Shown here: positions 2,350 to 8,517 of the stretch, one piece after another
Position numbering within the stretch: position 1 is the stretch's first letter
Layout: each line of letters starts with the position of its first letter
Source: a virus
Lineage: Duplodnaviria; Heunggongvirae; Uroviricota; Caudoviricetes
Reading direction: 5' to 3' (one strand)
DNA length: 8,517 nucleotides
Virus record (IMG/VR): IMGVR_UViG_2703718777_000017
The notes under the pieces: model-generated
Seen by the model: the letters and a program-made list of their open reading frames with translations, nothing else
The model's database searches: none
Told to the model about the DNA's origin: nothing
Position numbers and translations under genes: made by a program

Positions 2350-2738
2350 TCCTTGCGGCCGGGCGTGGAGAGCGCTTTCTCGCCTCCGGGGGAAATACCC
2401 ATAAGTGTATCGGCTGGCGTCAGTCCCCGGAGGTTGCGCCTTATCGCTGGCCATTTGAAGAAAACGGGAGAACTTTCGACCTTGCGATTGAACCGCAGAT
2501 TACGACTAATGATCTGCGTCTGATGTTGAGGCTGGCTCTTGCCGGCGGAGGAATAACAATTGCCACTCAGGAAACTTTCAGGCCATATATTGAAAGCGGT
2601 AAGCTTGTATCGCTGCTTGATGACTTTCTTCCACAATTTCCGGGCTTCTATCTGTATTTCCCACAGCGTCGCAATATTGCACCAAAGCTCCGCGCCCTGA
2701 TTGACTACGTCAAAGAATGGCGGCAGCAATTGGTTTAA
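2328..2738 (+). pseudogene. yagP: Chimeric relic ORF (136 aa): MocA/MobA-like nucleotidyltransferase N-terminal motif fused to a LysR-family C-terminal effector-binding fragment
   Basis: ATG at 2328 overlaps the paoD stop by 22 bp and follows GAGGAGGA (2317-2324). N-terminal residues MPAPVVLILAAGRGERF resemble the LAAGxxxR nucleotide-binding start of molybdenum-cofactor nucleotidyltransferases. Residues from about 48 onward (LRLMLRLALAGGGITIATQETFRPYIESGKLVSLLDDF...YLYFPQRRNIAPKLRALIDYV) look like only the C-terminal part of a LysR-type regulator; no HTH domain is present. Length and position match my recollection of the E. coli yagP pseudogene. Confidence 0.55.
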
Positions 2739-2861
2739 ATAGCTGCACCTGCACTGCCTGATGTCAGAACAGTATTTTGATGAATTGCCAAGGTTACAAT
2801 GGCACAAATGCGGCACAGGAGGAAACGTGGTGTATTTAAATATGGGGTAACTCTTTGATTT

Positions 2862-2880
2862 TAATGGCGATAATAGGAGT
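2862..2880 (-). other. tRNA-Thr (thrW-like) 3'-end fragment; putative attachment-site core remnant
   Basis: Reverse complement of 2862-2880 is ACTCCTATTATCGCCATTA. The first 13 nt (2868-2880) are identical to the T-arm/acceptor 3' segment ACTCCTATTATCG of E. coli tRNA-Thr(CGU) as I recall it, and 16 of 19 nt match through the CCA end. It lies between the chromosomal relic ORF and the integrase, exactly at the GC transition. No full tRNA cloverleaf is present. Depends on recalled tRNA sequence. Confidence 0.3.
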
Positions 2881-2966
2881 AAAACACTCGATTAATCTCG
2901 TGTTAATGCCATCACCTACGACCATTACTAATTGATTGAATCTTATAGAAAAAATCATCATTTTCT

Positions 2967-4301
2967 ATGCGTTACAATCAATTTTCACATTACAAACGCT
3001 CCGACACTTTAGCCGGGGAGTTTATGAGATACAAGCCCAATCAATACATAATCTGTGATTCTTACGGTAACTACTATTTAAGGATCACGCTGCCTGTGTA
3101 TATGCAGCCCTTTTTTGAAGGAAAAAGGACGTTTGTCAGGAGTCTACATACAAGTAACCTTCGTGTTGCACGTAGAAAGCGTGATCAGATTGCAGATGAA
3201 TACCATTGTCTACGGGAGAGTGTCGCTCCTGTAAACAGCACAATAGAGAACACGCTGGAACTGTTACGCAGTAAGGCTAAATACGCCAAAACAGCTACCA
3301 GAATGCAAGATACAGCGTCTTCGTGTCCGTCATTGCTTAAAATTCTTGAAATCTACCTGACAATTAACAGCACGAAGAAGAAGCCAGCCACTTTAGCTAA
3401 GGCAAGAAAAGCGGTAGAGATGTTTCTCTCCTACCGTAAAAAGCCTGATATTGCATTGCAAGATGTAAGCCGCACCACTGTTACAGGCTGGATTGAACAC
3501 ATGCAAAAAACCCTTTCACAACAATCAATTGCAAATTATATCAGCCCAATGGCCCAGCTATGGGAGTTAGCTTCATCACGTTACCACGATGCACCAGAAA
3601 GGGCGCTCTCCCCCTGGCGAGGGCATAGGCTTGATGTGGCACAAAGTAGAGAGAGCTATGAGGCATTTTCTAACAAAGAGCTATTGCAGGTGTTGCAAGT
3701 ATTTTCCGGTAATTCAGCAGAAAACAAAGAAATGATAGCTTTGTGTCTTATCGGTGCTTATACAGGTATGCGGATCAATGAGATAGCAAGTCTCACAATA
3801 GACGATGTGAAAGAGATCGAAGGTGTGCTGTGTTTTGAAATCACACAGGGAAAAACGAAAGCTGCGGCACGTGTTGTGCCTGTGCATAGCCTTATCACTC
3901 CATTGGTGTTATCTCTTCGTGAAAAGCCTCACAATGGCTTTTTGTTCTATCACGCCAGCATTACAGAGCGTGCTGATGGTAAACGTTCCACGTGGCACAC
4001 GCAGAGATTTACAAGAGCTAAACGAAAGGCTTTAGGGGAAAAGGGAACAGAAAGGAAGGTGTTTCATTCTCTGAGACACGGAGTAGCACAGCTTCTTGAT
4101 CGAAATCAAATTCCAGAAGACAGGATCGCCCTTCTCCTGGGCCATACACGCGGCAATACAGAAACATTCCGCACATATAGCAAGAATGCAGCTTCTCCAG
4201 TAGAGCTTAAAAAATATATTGAGCTTCTACGCTACCCTGAAATAGAGAAAGGCTTATCAATCAATAAAAAATCAAATTTAAGGCGTAAAACAACGCCATA
4301 G
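2967..4301 (+). CDS. Tyrosine-type site-specific recombinase (phage integrase family), 444 aa; possible alternative start at 3024
   Basis: C-terminal catalytic signature: TGMRINE (Arg codon 3771-3773), then FHSLRHGVAQLL...LLGHTRGNTETFRTYSK, i.e. box II HxLRH at 4065-4079, LLGH, and catalytic Tyr codon at 4176-4178. An in-frame stop at 2946-2948 fixes the earliest start at ATG 2967, which lacks a good SD. The second in-frame ATG at 3024 is preceded by GGGGAG. Position next to the tRNA-fragment junction is typical of island integrases. Confidence 0.85.
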   Translation: MRYNQFSHYKRSDTLAGEFMRYKPNQYIICDSYGNYYLRITLPVYMQPFFEGKRTFVRSLHTSNLRVARRKRDQIADEYHCLRESVAPVNSTIENTLELLRSKAKYAKTATRMQDTASSCPSLLKILEIYLTINSTKKKPATLAKARKAVEMFLSYRKKPDIALQDVSRTTVTGWIEHMQKTLSQQSIANYISPMAQLWELASSRYHDAPERALSPWRGHRLDVAQSRESYEAFSNKELLQVLQVFSGNSAENKEMIALCLIGAYTGMRINEIASLTIDDVKEIEGVLCFEITQGKTKAAARVVPVHSLITPLVLSLREKPHNGFLFYHASITERADGKRSTWHTQRFTRAKRKALGEKGTERKVFHSLRHGVAQLLDRNQIPEDRIALLLGHTRGNTETFRTYSKNAASPVELKKYIELLRYPEIEKGLSINKKSNLRRKTTP

Positions 4302-4308
4302 ACGCAAT

Positions 4309-4340
4309 AAAGAGGCTCCAACATAATTGGTAGCCTCTTT
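4309..4340 (+). terminator. Putative intrinsic terminator in the convergent gap between the integrase and the cargo array
   Basis: Inverted repeat AAAGAGGCT(4309-4317) ... AGCCTCTTT(4332-4340), with additional CCAA/TTGG pairing inside the loop, followed by TATAATT. It lies 8 bp after the integrase stop and about 40 bp beyond the end of the minus-strand 237-aa gene. Confidence 0.45.
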
Positions 4341-4381
4341 TATAATTACATCGTTACAGAGCGTTTTAGAGGCGTTTACGG

Positions 4382-5095
4382 CTATTCCTGTTTAAAGGCA
4401 GGAGTAATAGTGTCTTCACCTTCACTACTTGATTTTTCAGTGTTAACACGTTTTTTCATATTAGCCCCGATGTTCTTAGATGGCTGTGTTTTGATAGCTA
4501 CAGTGTTCACAGTGCCATAAGAAACTAATCTTATTTGCTCAAAGCTAAGATCAAATACCAGGGATTCGCTTGCCTCTTCTGTGTATTCGATTCCTGTTAA
4601 AACAACGTTCTCAAAAGTTTTATTTTCTGTAACAAGAAGAAAAGGCTGTCTACTGTCCATAATCTGATTCAGGTAGTCGATAGCTAATGATCTTCTGTTC
4701 CCGTTCACCCCTGCACTCTTTAACAAGCCAGGATCGCTTTTAATCGGTGTTTCAGTGATCCTTCCTTTAAGAGAAAACTTATTGTTTTTAATTTGAACGT
4801 GATCAGACACAGTAGCACCATTTTCTACGGGGTAGCTTGTAACATCTGCCGAACGTCTCACGTTCACATCGTCAACACTATCAAAGGCCAGTGCCATATA
4901 ATTTTCATAAACATCATTGCCAGAAGATGCCAAGCCACTGGTAACAATAGCAAATCCGTTCTCTCCTTTTGTTTTATTGGCTTTGCTATTTTCGTTTTTT
5001 GTAGAGTTTATATCTTGTTCTGCTTTGTAAACAGCCTGAACGTGTTGTTCTGGAGTATTTGCTGCACGTATGGTTAAAATCCCGGCGGTCGCCAT
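4382..5095 (-). CDS. Hypothetical protein, 237 aa (possible virion or tail-associated protein; function unknown)
   Basis: ATG at 5095 (minus) preceded by AAGGAAAA about 11 nt upstream. Last gene of the minus-strand array, ending 80 bp from the integrase stop. N-terminal K/N/S-rich low-complexity segment, then a segment with alternating hydrophobic residues (FLLVTENKTFENVVLTGIEY...LVFDLSFEQIRLV) suggestive of beta structure. No recognisable catalytic motif. Confidence 0.6.
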   Translation of the reverse strand: MATAGILTIRAANTPEQHVQAVYKAEQDINSTKNENSKANKTKGENGFAIVTSGLASSGNDVYENYMALAFDSVDDVNVRRSADVTSYPVENGATVSDHVQIKNNKFSLKGRITETPIKSDPGLLKSAGVNGNRRSLAIDYLNQIMDSRQPFLLVTENKTFENVVLTGIEYTEEASESLVFDLSFEQIRLVSYGTVNTVAIKTQPSKNIGANMKKRVNTEKSSSEGEDTITPAFKQE

Positions 5096-5129
5096 AATAA
5101 TAATTTTCCTTGTAATGTTATGGCGGGAA

Positions 5130-6959
5130 TTACCCGCCGTTGGATTGTCCTGATAAGCTGGTTAATGTTAATGATTTCAAGAAGCTATCCCGACTTGCTC
5201 TCGCTGTAAAATCCACATAATCGCTTAATCTTGATGTGTCTGAATTAATAGTAAGAGGAACCTCTGTTACCACTTCAAATGTAGGATTCAGATTAAACAC
5301 AGGAGATAAATTATAAGCCGGAGTTGTCATTGCAAGATTATTTAAAGCACCCTGTTTGAGATTGGTTATCGGTGCTTCGCTGACTGACATTTTTACATCT
5401 GACACAGAAGAATTATCATCGAAAAGCAATCCCTTAATCGTGTTAAAGAGAGAATGACTATTATCAGGTGTAGTTGTTGCAGTGCCAGCGCCTTTATATT
5501 GGTCAGGAACGAGATTAGAAAGATGCTGTTTCATCCCTTCATTGCTTAATGGCGGTGCATCACCTAAATTTTTCTGAATAGCATCTGTCTTATCATCATT
5601 ACGATTAAACCAGTTTACAATCTTCATAATAGCTTCAAAGAGACTTCCTACAGCTTCTCCCAGCTTCGTAAAATACGGAGTGAGATTAGAAAGGTTTTTC
5701 AAAAACTCTTCCGTTACTTTTGGATCGAGAGATTTCATAAAGCCGTCTACGAATGCTACTTGTCTTGCATCAGAAAGCTGTGAAAGCTGTCTGTTTAGTT
5801 CTCTGAATTTAACAATAGAGTCTTGCTGTGTTTCTGTTAGCCATTTTCCAGAGGCTTTTTGCTGATTAATACTTTCTTGTACATCTTTAACGGAACGTTG
5901 CCAATATTTTGACGTAAGCATCAAATCATCGCCCAGGTCTTCTAAACGTTGTCCAATTTGGGAGTCTGAAAACCCTTTTTTCATCATTCCATTAACAGCC
6001 TTAGAAATTAATCCAGCCGGATTATCAGCAAATTTTTTAAGGTCGCTTTTGTTAATAACACCGATGTTTAGAAGTTCATTAATAGCATTATCACCGCCTT
6101 TCCATTCAGATTTTCCGGTTTTCTTGTCTTTCACCAATTCAGCTTCACTGTAGGATTTTGCGGCACGTTCCCTAACATCTTTCATCTGATCCAGGTATTT
6201 CCTAGCCCCTTGATCACCCATCATAGAGTCAACGCCGTTTCTATAGGCCCATTCTGTAATGTTGTACATCTGGTTAACGTCTACACCGCCAAGCCTTGCA
6301 CGTTGAATTAGCTCTCCTTGTGTCTCAGCATTGGCAAAACTATTAGCCATAAATTCACCGGTTTTACTAACCGCCATCACGCCAGCAGCAGCCGTAGCGC
6401 CTCCAAATAACAGAGCGCCCATAGTGGCGGAATTCCCTGATCCTCCCTTAACGGGGGCTAATTGAACTTTTCTGTTGCCATTAATCTTACGTTGTTGTTG
6501 TTGTAAGCGTTTCATCTGGCTATTCATACGTGCAAGCGAGATAGCCCCTTGCTCATATTGTTTCGCTATCTCTCTAGCCTGTGCAATAGCTTTGTATTGT
6601 TCCGCTACAGAGAGGCGGTGCATTGCACTGATAGAGCTTGACACATCAAGGAGCTTTAATTCTGCTTTCTCTTTACGTGCTGCTATTTGTTGCTGTTGCC
6701 TTGCCTGTGCTCTTGCTGCGGCAGCTTGTGCTCTTTGATTCTGTTTTTCTGTTTTGGCTTTCTGTTGAGCAATCTTATCTACTTCGCTTTGTGCTTTCTT
6801 ATAGCCTTTAGTGACATTATCAAATCTTAATTTAGCTGGCTTGATGTTTTCTGCGAATTCCTTTAAGCCTGTAATAGAGTCTTTCGCTTTTTTCAAGCTG
6901 TCTTTATCTACACTAAATGTAACTGTGTTCTTAATTTTAGAAGTGTTAATTTCTAACAT
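5130..6959 (-). CDS. Large coiled-coil protein, 609 aa; tape-measure-like or internal virion (ejection) protein-like architecture, function unverified
   Basis: ATG at 6959 (minus) preceded by GGGGA with a 6-nt spacer, and only 18 bp after the stop of the upstream 66-aa gene, so an operon. The N-terminal ~170 aa is Q/A/R/K-rich, with heptad-like character (QKAKTEKQNQRAQAAAARAQARQQQQIAARKEKAELKL). A Gly/Ala hydrophobic segment (GGSGNSATMGALLFGGATAAAGVMAVSKTG) follows, then a long helical central region and an S/T/N-rich C-terminus. This arrangement is common in phage tape-measure and ejection proteins. The call is architectural, not homology-based. Confidence 0.7.
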   Translation of the reverse strand: MLEINTSKIKNTVTFSVDKDSLKKAKDSITGLKEFAENIKPAKLRFDNVTKGYKKAQSEVDKIAQQKAKTEKQNQRAQAAAARAQARQQQQIAARKEKAELKLLDVSSSISAMHRLSVAEQYKAIAQAREIAKQYEQGAISLARMNSQMKRLQQQQRKINGNRKVQLAPVKGGSGNSATMGALLFGGATAAAGVMAVSKTGEFMANSFANAETQGELIQRARLGGVDVNQMYNITEWAYRNGVDSMMGDQGARKYLDQMKDVRERAAKSYSEAELVKDKKTGKSEWKGGDNAINELLNIGVINKSDLKKFADNPAGLISKAVNGMMKKGFSDSQIGQRLEDLGDDLMLTSKYWQRSVKDVQESINQQKASGKWLTETQQDSIVKFRELNRQLSQLSDARQVAFVDGFMKSLDPKVTEEFLKNLSNLTPYFTKLGEAVGSLFEAIMKIVNWFNRNDDKTDAIQKNLGDAPPLSNEGMKQHLSNLVPDQYKGAGTATTTPDNSHSLFNTIKGLLFDDNSSVSDVKMSVSEAPITNLKQGALNNLAMTTPAYNLSPVFNLNPTFEVVTEVPLTINSDTSRLSDYVDFTARASRDSFLKSLTLTSLSGQSNGG

Positions 6960-6977
6960 TTAAAATCCCCTTATTAA

Positions 6978-7178
6978 TCATTTTTTACCACCTTCTTTGC
7001 TTAAGAAATGGTGTAGAGCCTGATCAATACTCTCGTTTAGTCTGAACATACGGGCTTTTACTCCTTCATATGGAACATCTAAGAGAGAACATAGATATTT
7101 CAGATTTAACAAGCCTCTAGAATCATTAGCATCTAAATGTACGTGTACACCATTTTTTGATTTCAGAATCACTTCCAT
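6978..7178 (-). CDS. Small hypothetical protein, 66 aa
   Basis: ATG at 7178 (minus) preceded by GAGGTGA with a 7-nt spacer. It sits directly downstream of the terminator that follows the capsid-like gene and is tightly coupled to the 609-aa gene. Basic C-terminus (KEGGKK). Function unknown. Confidence 0.5.
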   Translation of the reverse strand: MEVILKSKNGVHVHLDANDSRGLLNLKYLCSLLDVPYEGVKARMFRLNESIDQALHHFLSKEGGKK

Positions 7179-7211
7179 ATTTTAATCACCTCTCAAAATT
7201 TAAAAATAAAT

Positions 7212-7248
7212 AAAAAAAGGCGAAGCGTGTTATTCACGCCACGCCTCT
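7212..7248 (-). terminator. Rho-independent terminator immediately downstream of the capsid-like gene
   Basis: On the minus strand the transcript reads as a GC-rich hairpin (GGCG-UG-GCGUG-AAUAA-CACGC-UU-CGCC) followed by UUUUUUUAUUUAUUUUU; on the plus strand this is the A-run at 7212-7218 preceding the stem. It begins 17 nt after the stop codon of the 342-aa gene (7265-7267). Confidence 0.6.
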
Positions 7249-7264
7249 ATTACACGTTAAAATA

Positions 7265-8293
7265 TTATTTAACAGTGATTTGAACGGAGAAGCCAACGCC
7301 GTGGTTTACAACCATCTGGCTATTCTCTGTAACAACGTTAACAGCATCACCACGAGAAGATTCATAGCTGTAGCTATACACCTCAGCAGGAGCGGCATTG
7401 ATCAGTTCAAAGGTGCTGGAAGCAGCCCCGTAGATGTTCTGATATACATTAGAGCCTTTAGCAAACTTCGGAACCGCTACAGCGTCTGCGGTCATATGTG
7501 CAAGGTGTAGCGGATCTACCAGTTTAACAACATCAATGTTAGTTCCTGGAATAGTGAACGCTGTCACCCCCGGTAGCAGGTCACGACGCTGATACACAAC
7601 GTTCCCTTCTTCCAGTGGGCTTACATACTGGAATGCGTTTGCCATACCCGCAGAGAATCGAATTGCAGAGAAGGCTTCAGGTTTACAGAACACAACAACA
7701 CGCTCAATGGTTGCAGCCTGTTTTTGTGCCTTAGCAATCATATCCGTAGCAATCTGATCAAATTCTTTAAAAATCTTCGTGGTGTCAGTGCTGGAAGCGT
7801 TCACAGTGGCTTTCATAGCTGATACGTTAAACAGCTTGCCCCATTCGATAAGAACATCATCAGTTTTAGGCGTGTAAGTTTTACCGCTAAACAGAGATGC
7901 AGCCAGCACGCTCTCTTTTGTACGCTGATACGCTACGTGGTGTTTAGCAACATAGTCAGCATAGATATCAGTGAGTGTTTCCTGAAAATCAGTGCCAGGC
8001 TTACGCTTGCCTTGAACATCAGAAGGACGGATCACATCTTCACGAAGAAAATACGGGATTTCAATAAGCCATTCTTTACCTTGTTCTCGCTTAGTAACGT
8101 TGTGTTCAGAAGAGAAACGAGAGGTTTCTTTGTTAAAGAGAGATTCGTTGCTTTCGACAAGCTGGGAAACAGCTACTTTATGAGAACTAACGCCCACCGG
8201 ATCAGTGAAGTCGAGGGTAGAGAGCAGAAAGTTACGCGTGCTGTGTGTCTGGAAAAGCGGAGCTAAATCAACGTAATCATTACCTAGAATCAT
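7265..8293 (-). CDS. Putative phage major capsid-like protein, 342 aa (family assignment tentative)
   Basis: ATG at 8293 (minus) preceded by AAGGAA with a 6-nt spacer, 15 bp after the stop of the upstream partial gene. Followed by a strong intrinsic terminator, as expected for an abundantly expressed structural gene. The segment IERVVVFCKPEAFSAI resembles, from memory, the DRVFYCDPDSYSAI segment of T7-type (HK97-fold) major capsid proteins. Size is typical of HK97-fold capsid proteins. No search or structure prediction was possible. Confidence 0.6.
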   Translation of the reverse strand: MILGNDYVDLAPLFQTHSTRNFLLSTLDFTDPVGVSSHKVAVSQLVESNESLFNKETSRFSSEHNVTKREQGKEWLIEIPYFLREDVIRPSDVQGKRKPGTDFQETLTDIYADYVAKHHVAYQRTKESVLAASLFSGKTYTPKTDDVLIEWGKLFNVSAMKATVNASSTDTTKIFKEFDQIATDMIAKAQKQAATIERVVVFCKPEAFSAIRFSAGMANAFQYVSPLEEGNVVYQRRDLLPGVTAFTIPGTNIDVVKLVDPLHLAHMTADAVAVPKFAKGSNVYQNIYGAASSTFELINAAPAEVYSYSYESSRGDAVNVVTENSQMVVNHGVGFSVQITVK

Positions 8294-8308
8294 TTATTAT
8301 TCCTTTTA

Positions 8309-8517
8309 TTAAGAAGTGAAAACAGAATGGAACCCTTCAAGCTGAAAGCCTTTTTTAATTAATGCTGTTTTTGCTGCTTCACTTACAGCATTCAGGGCAT
8401 CAGCTTTGATGCATACAAGCCCAGCATTGCTACGTAGCACATCTACAGGCTTGTTTTCCCCAGCCGTTACAAATTCACTCAGAACAACATTGATCTTACC
8501 CAGCAATAGTGGACACG
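8309..8517 (-). CDS. Hypothetical protein, C-terminal part only (gene starts beyond the window); possibly a scaffold or head-associated partner of the capsid-like gene
   Basis: The minus-strand frame is open from the window edge (8517) to TAA at 8309-8311. The ORF track's start at 8506 is a TTG and probably not the true start. Stop is 15 bp upstream of the capsid-like gene's ATG, so co-transcription is likely. Confidence 0.5.
   Translation of the reverse strand, partial: CPLLLGKINVVLSEFVTAGENKPVDVLRSNAGLVCIKADALNAVSEAAKTALIKKGFQLEGFHSVFTS

Follow-up and report, generated by a model that had tools for sequence, protein, structure and literature searches.

P4 is a ~12-kb integrative element that resides at a tRNA gene, depends on the myovirus P2 as its helper and needs a small capsid; it obtains one by resizing the capsid of P2 with Sid and Psu, carries an alpha primase, and has no capsid, tape measure or tube-initiator genes of its own. 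To our knowledge, PLE, the satellite of the virulent myophage ICP1, also has no major capsid protein, tape measure or tube initiator of its own. PLE combines a modular RepA_N initiator with an iteron origin, and ICP1 counterattacks with Odn, a chimeric T5orf172 nuclease that copies the DNA-binding RepA domain of PLE and cuts the PLE origin (PMC8263062). The cf-PICIs are satellite-size chromosomal islands that encode their own HK97-family capsid (Alqurainy et al., bioRxiv 10.1101/2022.09.08.507074). Closest to the present case, Barth, Dunham & Seed (2023; NAR Genom Bioinform 5:lqad076, PMC10448857) traced the RepA_N domains of three odn-like phage genes to bacterial loci and catalogued 224 putative satellites, left unnamed (their Fig. 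8 and Table S6). Such loci have an integrase, attachment (att) sites and genes for a major capsid protein (MCP), a decoration protein, a tape measure protein (TMP) and a baseplate component, but terminase, protease, alpA, adaptors and Pri-Rep are missing; a resolvase-bearing, lysR-side subtype is among them (PMC10448857). Here we analyze a window of 8,517 nucleotides (IMG/VR record IMGVR_UViG_2703718777_000017; “the window” means this whole stretch) whose host DNA is Escherichia coli chromosome, with a low-GC insert between paoD/yagP' and thrW. An array of five genes beside the integrase of this insert is probably the module for virion morphogenesis in an integrative element of ~12.3 kb at thrW, a putative phage satellite. 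We favor this reading because the array products are homologues of virion parts, because the array belongs to an att-bounded replicon without packaging or tail-body genes, and because of its conservation, the selection acting on it and an apparent exchange of DNA with phages of the Stephanstirmvirinae.

The array comprises five minus-strand open reading frames (ORFs), convergent with a plus-strand tyrosine integrase:

3024-4301, plus strand: tyrosine integrase (Pfam Phage_integrase 3e-17 and DUF6538 4e-9; phrog_1 integrase 4e-33)
4382-5095, minus strand: tail-tube initiator gene, 237 amino acids (aa)
5130-6959, minus strand: tape measure gene, 609 aa
6978-7178, minus strand: small-protein gene, 66 aa
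7212-7247, minus strand: intrinsic terminator/attenuator 3' of the capsid gene, GAGGCGTGGCGTG-AATAA-CACGCTTCGCC followed by T7 (terminator scan and sequence)
7265-8293, minus strand: major capsid gene, 342 aa
8309-8490, minus strand: 3' part of a ~120-aa gene, truncated by the insertion sequence IS3 and a pseudogene in RefSeq
8491-8517, no strand assigned: IS3 terminal inverted repeat (TGATCTTACCCAGCAATAGTGGACACG on the plus strand), read from the sequence

A first-pass annotation of the window had described five minus-strand ORFs with Shine-Dalgarno (SD) motifs, tight spacing and an AT-rich composition, and the ORF calls, the GC content and the sequence itself bear this out at these coordinates. 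The intergenic gaps are 34, 18, 86 and 15 nt, SD-like motifs (AAGGA, AAGGGG, GAGGTG and AAGGA) lie upstream of the array starts, and GC content is 0.32-0.47 in the array vs. 0.56-0.62 in the flanking pao genes. Its suggestion of a virion-structural module was also right: capsid, TMP and tube initiator each have a homologue of solved structure in the phi92 virion (gp124, gp134 and gp135; PDB 21uy/21vq, PMC13450770), in the same relative order, although phi92 is a 148-kb virulent phage, the element is a 12-kb chromosomal one and the capsid is deeply diverged.

The 342-aa protein matches Pfam Phage_cap_E (6e-14; 52.3 bits vs. a cut-off of 22.9) over residues 23-341 of its 342, matches the phrog_29 major head protein, and aligns end to end with phi92 gp124 at 22% identity; its PDB matches are 9zbi_A, a capsid protein (3e-10), and 21uy_N, Phi92_gp124 (1e-6). 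Homology places it among the major capsid proteins of the lambda gpE/phi92 gp124 family, and membership of that family predicts an HK97 fold. Its homologues form 53 clusters, and all of the organism-named ones come from Enterobacterales genomes. The strong terminator that the first-pass annotation placed after this gene is real (7212-7247), and a hairpin with a U-run is kept in the same post-capsid gap in six of seven diverged relatives, although the sequences differ; the hairpin is therefore a conserved feature and not a product of chance. Its conservation supports a predicted attenuation of expression downstream of the capsid gene.

The 609-aa protein matches a TMP profile (phrog_16051, 9e-54) and phi92 gp134 (PDB 21vq_V, 2e-37), and a tblastn search with it returned TMPs of the Stephanstirmvirinae. 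Its N-terminal 66 aa are 55% identical to those of gp134 and the alignment reaches the extreme C-terminus, the part that in phi92 is located inside the baseplate (PMC13450770). By homology to gp134 it is thus identified as a tail tape measure protein. It is 50 residues shorter than gp134 (609 vs. 659 aa), and if TMP length sets tail length, the tails would be ~8% shorter than the 24-ring tail of phi92. Compared with gp134 (L004 9001-10980), and with coiled-coil content judged by eye from the sequence, ~86 N-terminal coiled-coil residues are missing and ~35 extra ones are present in the C-terminal half.

The 237-aa protein is identified in the same way as a tail-tube initiator homologous to phi92 gp135, of the myophage class to which Pam3 gp17 also belongs. 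It matches Pfam Dit_like (3e-29; 101.9 bits vs. a cut-off of 24.2), is 58-61% identical to gp135 of phi92-like phages, and finds Phi92_gp135 (21vq_N, 2e-78) and the tube initiators 9cuy_K (3e-13) and 7yfz_a (1e-6) in the PDB. In phi92, gp135 forms a hexameric ring on the baseplate hub and seeds tube polymerization, as seen by cryo-electron microscopy (PMC13450770).

The two remaining proteins of the array are small. Homologues of the 66-aa protein occupy the same position in seven lineages (the Citrobacter ORF was spotted by eye in the gap sequence). Its Pfam matches are all sub-threshold helix-turn-helix (HTH) ones; its AlphaFold2 model is a beta-hairpin with three helices (predicted local distance difference test score, pLDDT, 74), for which Foldseek gave no match below E=1 in the PDB, and BLASTP against phi92 gp133 returned nothing. 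The ~120-aa gene directly precedes the capsid gene in every family member and is labelled “decoration protein” by Barth et al. (PMC10448857). Searches with its product against phi92 gp123 (BLASTP and hhalign) and against PDB profiles were negative, and its AlphaFold2 model was unusable (pLDDT 46).

As the reference complete copy we took locus L003 of strain fEC.1, which is free of insertion sequences and in which the ~120-aa gene is full length (19621-19983, 120 aa). It is bounded by 28-nt direct att repeats at 14162-14189 and 26514-26541, the latter being the 3' end of thrW; the two match at 26 of 28 positions and their starts are 12,352 nt apart, which gives the ~12.3-kb unit. From thrW inwards, its contents are in order:

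(1) a 50-aa ORF and a small serine recombinase
(2) a 1.85-kb non-coding stretch with five iterons
(3) two small ORFs, one weakly Arc-like (E 0.017)
(4) a 223-aa O-like/HTH_36 replication initiator, then three ORFs without matches
(5) a 350-nt leader, a 70-aa ORF, the five array genes and the integrase

The iterons are five direct repeats of ~24 nt (TAGGGGTATCA-N-TTGATAGGGGTA, L003 23895-24035), likely the origin of replication and the predicted target of a phage nuclease described below. The leader (L003 20193-20545, minus strand) holds a near-consensus sigma-70 promoter (TTGACA, 17 nt, TAATAT) before the 70-aa gene. Downstream of this promoter come a hairpin (GGGGAG...CTCCCC), a perfect palindrome of 16 nt (TATGCATAC/GTATGCATA) and a second hairpin that has a T-run and resembles a terminator. 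By its sequence the leader looks like that of an antitermination-controlled late operon. No late-promoter motif shared across the seven lineages was found (11-mers, at most one mismatch), and an Rfam scan of the whole element returned thrW only.

Pfam and PHROGs searches of all L003 ORFs found no portal, terminase, protease, head-tail adaptor, sheath, tube, wedge, lysis or repressor gene. The first-pass annotation had noted that the array is convergent with the integrase and that genes for excisionase, repressor, lysis, terminase, portal and tail tube cannot be recognized in the window; both observations hold, and these genes are missing from the IS-free complete element as well. The ~12.3-kb att-bounded unit thus has none of what a complete prophage would include (portal, terminase, tail body, lysis, immunity), and its layout is indeed not that of a lambdoid phage, P2, P4, P22 or T7. 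Nor were the hallmarks of cf-PICIs (terminase subunits, portal, prohead protease, connectors, AlpA, Pri-Rep) detected in the window or in L003. The element therefore differs from the cf-PICIs by the absence of terminase, portal, prohead protease, head-tail adaptors, alpA and Pri-Rep (see also PMC10448857), by its tail genes (TMP and tube initiator), and by its presumed helpers, which would be virulent myophages and not temperate phages. The expectation that portal and terminase genes, or else non-phage genes, might lie to the right of the window was not borne out: IS3 follows, its transposase annotated as directly adjoining in strains 2014C-3061 and 13E0725, and then the early/replication genes of the element.

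An HK97-family capsid gene without portal or terminase could also belong to a non-viral protein shell or secretion-like device (of the encapsulin, tailocin or contractile-injection type) assembled from phage-derived parts, and the first-pass annotation had allowed for a protein-shell or defense-type system. We regard this as extremely improbable, given that sheath, tube, spike and wedge genes and any cargo-loading or encapsulin-type features are absent, that the capsid can be aligned over its whole length with a capsid protein of a phage, and that the setting is a mobile element whose replication module is targeted by phage nucleases. A search of PADLOC-DB 2.0 gave no match for 10 element proteins at E<=0.01, NCBIfam gave nothing informative for the element proteins, and nothing non-phage was seen in them.

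The same compact plan recurs in Klebsiella pneumoniae, Serratia, Enterobacter, Citrobacter freundii, Sodalis and divergent E. coli. Small ORFs, the initiator, a few ORFs of no assigned function and a gap make up its first half; a ~70-aa gene, the ~120-aa gene, the capsid (~345 aa), a ~60-aa gene and the TMP (610-650 aa) make up its second, usually followed by the convergent DUF6538 integrase. Within E. coli, 242 of 5426 complete genomes (~4%) carry at least 80% of window positions 2700-8517. The ratio of non-synonymous to synonymous substitution rates (dN/dS) between E. coli variants is 0.01-0.19 for the five window genes (0.06-0.14 for the capsid gene, 0.16-0.17 for the TMP gene, 0.01-0.07 for the tube initiator gene and 0-0.05 for the 66-aa gene), a range that indicates purifying selection.

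These data bear on the possibility, also raised in the first-pass annotation, of a degraded prophage, that is, the late-operon remnant of a temperate phi92-like relative left after deletion of portal, terminase, sheath, tube and baseplate genes. The gene order of the array (~120-aa gene, capsid, TMP, tube initiator) is a subset of phi92 gp123-gp124 ... gp134-gp135, and the window copy itself carries IS3, a frameshifted rep and a degenerate att, as such a remnant might. However, seven genera share the same ~10-12-kb set, bounded by att and integrase, with capsids that are 37-98% identical; the missing genes have left no debris in the form of pseudogenes, and neither the dN/dS range nor the presence of the block in so many complete E. 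coli genomes fits a decaying remnant. Further, phage nucleases aimed at the replication module make sense only if the element is an active competitor. With a compact layout across genera, att repeats and purifying selection all against it, we consider a degraded prophage very unlikely; of the options offered at the outset, a capsid-forming satellite is the best supported.

Not all of the structural genes belong to the core of the family. The tube initiator is confined to the E. coli thrW type, Citrobacter and Sodalis, and because of this distribution we treat it as accessory, with capsid and TMP as the apparent core; its patchiness argues for an add-on role. Klebsiella and Enterobacter elements without it have a 92-aa ORF instead (L005 13513-13791 and L015 12522-12800), the Serratia element without it has a 111-aa ORF on the opposite strand (L008 13311-13646), and one E. 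coli variant has nothing between TMP and integrase (L018 9040-9148). From these comparisons, the position adjoining the integrase appears to be a variable cargo slot.

The link to virulent phages comes from the remainder of the element. In a blastn search against phage genomes, it matched 609 bp of Escherichia phage muut, a phi92-like Justusliebigvirus, at 86% identity. Residues 1-123 of the 332-aa muut gp094 match the DNA-binding domain of the L003 initiator at 99% identity; the protein then runs on into another HTH_36 domain and an endonuclease domain of the T5orf172/MUG113 type (phrog_681, 2e-18). In inny and Mt1B1_P17 (also in BI-EHEC), the same nuclease body is joined to two further N-terminal domains, and very few other phages have it; the nuclease is sporadic among these phages, with three different N-termini. 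The N-terminal domain of the element initiator is likewise swapped between variants, the window strain having another type of DNA-binding domain than L003. The initiator of the L002 type (strain E423) had no match among phages, and the top matches listed for the L002-specific flank were discarded, as they represent the attP region of a neighboring lambdoid/SfX-type prophage. Next to the nuclease gene product, muut gp095 (L009 3421-3588) is 100% identical to the 55-aa, weakly Arc-like ORF upstream of rep in L002 (L002 22449-22616), as is inny_185 (L012 1837-2019). Phages thus hold copies of both the Rep domain and the 55-aa ORF, and we therefore propose that a two-gene block was captured by phages. 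Judging by these identities, DNA exchange between the element and virulent Stephanstirmvirinae is very recent.

By analogy, the muut-type nuclease has the same architecture as Odn of ICP1. PLE and the element are alike in being satellites (here putative) of virulent myophages, in their modular RepA_N-type initiator with an iteron origin, and in the phage counterattack by a chimeric T5orf172 nuclease equipped with a copy of the initiator's DNA-binding domain (PMC8263062). There is, however, no sequence relationship between the two, and the copied domain is 99% identical here vs. 42% for Odn and PLE1.

A second stretch shared with phages is non-coding. Seventy-nine bp following the serine-recombinase gene (L003 25217-25295; L001 32590-32671) share ~83% identity with unannotated sequence of 65 phage records, almost all of them from ~150-kb phages of the phAPEC8 type (Phapecoctavirus). 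The motif often lies 24-357 nt from the end of the phage record, and in Schickermooser the motif spans the edge of the terminal repeat (328/329 bp) that Korf et al. (2019) reported. It folds no better than shuffled sequences and is not an obvious RNA, and it is absent from the resolvase-less variant L002. It may mimic a packaging or cutting site, which would make it a candidate terminal-repeat mimic.

Taken together, a putative satellite of this kind could work as follows. On infection of the cell by a phi92- or phAPEC8-like virulent myophage, the element would excise and replicate from its own origin at the iterons. The element capsid protein and its ~120-aa partner would be made in excess, aided by the post-capsid terminator, and would form small capsids for ~12 kb on the portal and scaffold of the helper, to be filled by the helper terminase. 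The element TMP, helper-like at both ends, and the tube initiator would enter helper baseplates, giving either satellite-dedicated tails or spoiled helper tails; either outcome would cut the yield of the helper and so protect the bacterial population. Some phages would have answered with the nuclease that copies the DNA-binding domain of the initiator and would cut the element origin.

The last steps of this scheme could also be those of an interference island, in which the homologues of capsid, TMP and tube initiator would serve as dominant-negative subunits or decoys and so poison the assembly of phi92/phAPEC8-like phages, while the element itself is never packaged. That the integrase, the att sites, an own replicon and a full-length capsid under purifying selection are the equipment of a mobilizable element speaks against this, as does the lack of any matching PADLOC model; moreover, interference and satellite spread are not mutually exclusive, and PLE does both. 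On the other side, the TMP keeps a helper-like N-terminus (55% over 66 aa) and a baseplate-embedded C-terminus, the tube initiator, 60% identical to gp135, is close enough for helper baseplates, neither a terminase nor a family-wide pac site was found, and interference with tail assembly by mobile elements has a precedent (PMC11364771). On balance we judge a pure interference island unlikely.

Several points nevertheless weigh against the satellite interpretation that we prefer. The tube initiator is missing in Klebsiella, Enterobacter, Serratia and some E. coli, so that it is not essential to the lifestyle of the family, and the capsid, only 22% identical to gp124, may be incompatible with the portal and scaffold of a helper. 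No family-wide packaging signal was found, the 79-bp motif being limited to the resolvase-bearing subtype. As to the small proteins, neither the role of the 66-aa protein, which is weakly HTH-like in its profile matches and model, nor the label “decoration protein” could be confirmed; the label is taken from Barth et al. and from the position of the gene. Finally, we found no published experimental follow-up on excision, replication, packaging or transfer. With these points in mind, we offer one further proposal tentatively, as possible but doubtful: this may be the first satellite family to remodel both ends of the virion of a virulent helper, with a small head of its own and with its own TMP and tube initiator for shorter, satellite-specific or sabotaged tails, while the resolvase types may borrow the helper terminase through their ~80-bp copy of the Phapecoctavirus terminal-repeat boundary.

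The element type itself is not new, contrary to the first-pass description of an “undescribed element”; it is already known from sequence as the putative satellite family catalogued by Barth et al. (PMC10448857), whose Table S6 holds two elements at the same locus, CP085638.1 (fEC.1, 12,298 bp, tyrosine and resolvase both “TRUE”) and CP027366.1, which are 96.4 and 96.3% identical, respectively, to window 2700-8517. The records CP027548 and CP020092 themselves are not in Table S6. The integrase lies by a thrW-derived att repeat beside the yagP' LysR remnant, and L003 has the full repeats and thrW; MCP, TMP and tube initiator are present, as is a gene in the decoration position, its fold unconfirmed; and a phage T5orf172 nuclease mirrors the N-terminal domain of the initiator (L003 vs. 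muut gp094). Gene set (integrase, decoration-like protein, MCP, TMP, baseplate/tube initiator and RepA_N-type initiator), thrW/lysR-side location and resolvase-bearing subtype are all the same, and the window copy differs from the family in nothing of kind, having in addition IS3, a frameshifted rep and a shortened att. Searching the literature for named satellites of phages of the rV5/phi92 type returned the 2023 paper alone. That paper does not include a mechanism for the structural genes, the homology to phi92 gp134 and gp135, the conserved terminator or the spread over five genera (Klebsiella, Enterobacter, Citrobacter, Sodalis, Serratia). What we add is thus the assignment to phi92 gp124, gp134 and gp135, the distribution in Enterobacterales, the conserved attenuator, the decay of the window copy and the candidate terminal-repeat mimic.

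The window copy is partly decayed. The partial gene at its right end is incomplete, as the first-pass annotation had it, but not merely on account of the window edge: the IS3 inverted repeat at 8491-8517 interrupts it. Because IS3 splits the ~120-aa gene, rep is frameshifted in the window strain (the loci concerned by decay are L001 28960-29648 and L001 25858-27020) and the att copy is degenerate, this copy is, from its sequence, probably no longer mobile. The element of the window strain is also mosaic, an L002-type Rep DNA-binding domain standing beside an L003-type 56-aa ORF.

The other features of the window lie to the left of the array:

1-2740, strand not assigned: ends of paoC and paoD and the LysR-family remnant yagP' (56-62% GC)
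2850-2891, no strand: degenerate att copy from the thrW 3' end (ptwF-like), core TTAATGG..CGATAATAGGAGT, 3 nt short vs. thrW
4311-4338, no strand: hairpin AGAGGCT-N14-AGCCTCT between the two convergent stop codons, read from the sequence

GC content falls to 32-47% from ~2750 onward. The proposed thrW-proximal site was correct: thrW is located beyond the window, where the element has its other end, no tRNA gene was found in the window, and the exact thrW core was not found there, the att copy at 2850-2891 being shortened by 3 nt; this copy corresponds to “att_WT” in Table S6 of PMC10448857. The integrase, with DUF6538, SAM-like and catalytic domains, could start at 2967 (444 aa) or at 3024 (425 aa, as in RefSeq), and probably starts at the latter; the 19 additional codons would begin just 76 nt past the att copy. 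The hairpin at 4311-4338, which separates the array from the integrase, is likely a bidirectional terminator; the terminator scan missed it and gave other sites, at 4282-4297 and 4293-4305.

Other mobile elements are found beside members of the family. In Citrobacter freundii (L016 14544-19032), a P4-like island with an Arm-DNA-binding integrase, AlpA, DUF5375 and a zinc-ribbon primase/Toprim/DUF927 protein stands in tandem with the element, and from their gene content two distinct satellite types appear to lie side by side. In strain E423 (L002 25435-33806), part of a further thrW-type prophage, with GtrA/GtrB-type O-antigen glucosylation genes, a tailspike and an SfX/HK542-like attP region, lies beyond the element, as does an ISApl1. 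The arrangement in E423 marks thrW as an apparent hotspot of tandem insertion.

Among satellites that parasitize strictly virulent phages, PLE with ICP1 in Vibrio cholerae is the one case known in detail; with the element family, E. coli and its relatives would have a counterpart. The presumed helpers, phi92- and phAPEC8-like phages, are candidates for phage therapy, so that an element that hijacks or blocks them could affect the outcome of treatment. An element that encodes a capsid, a tail ruler and a tube initiator but no packaging genes also raises a testable question, namely how much of the virion a parasite must supply itself.

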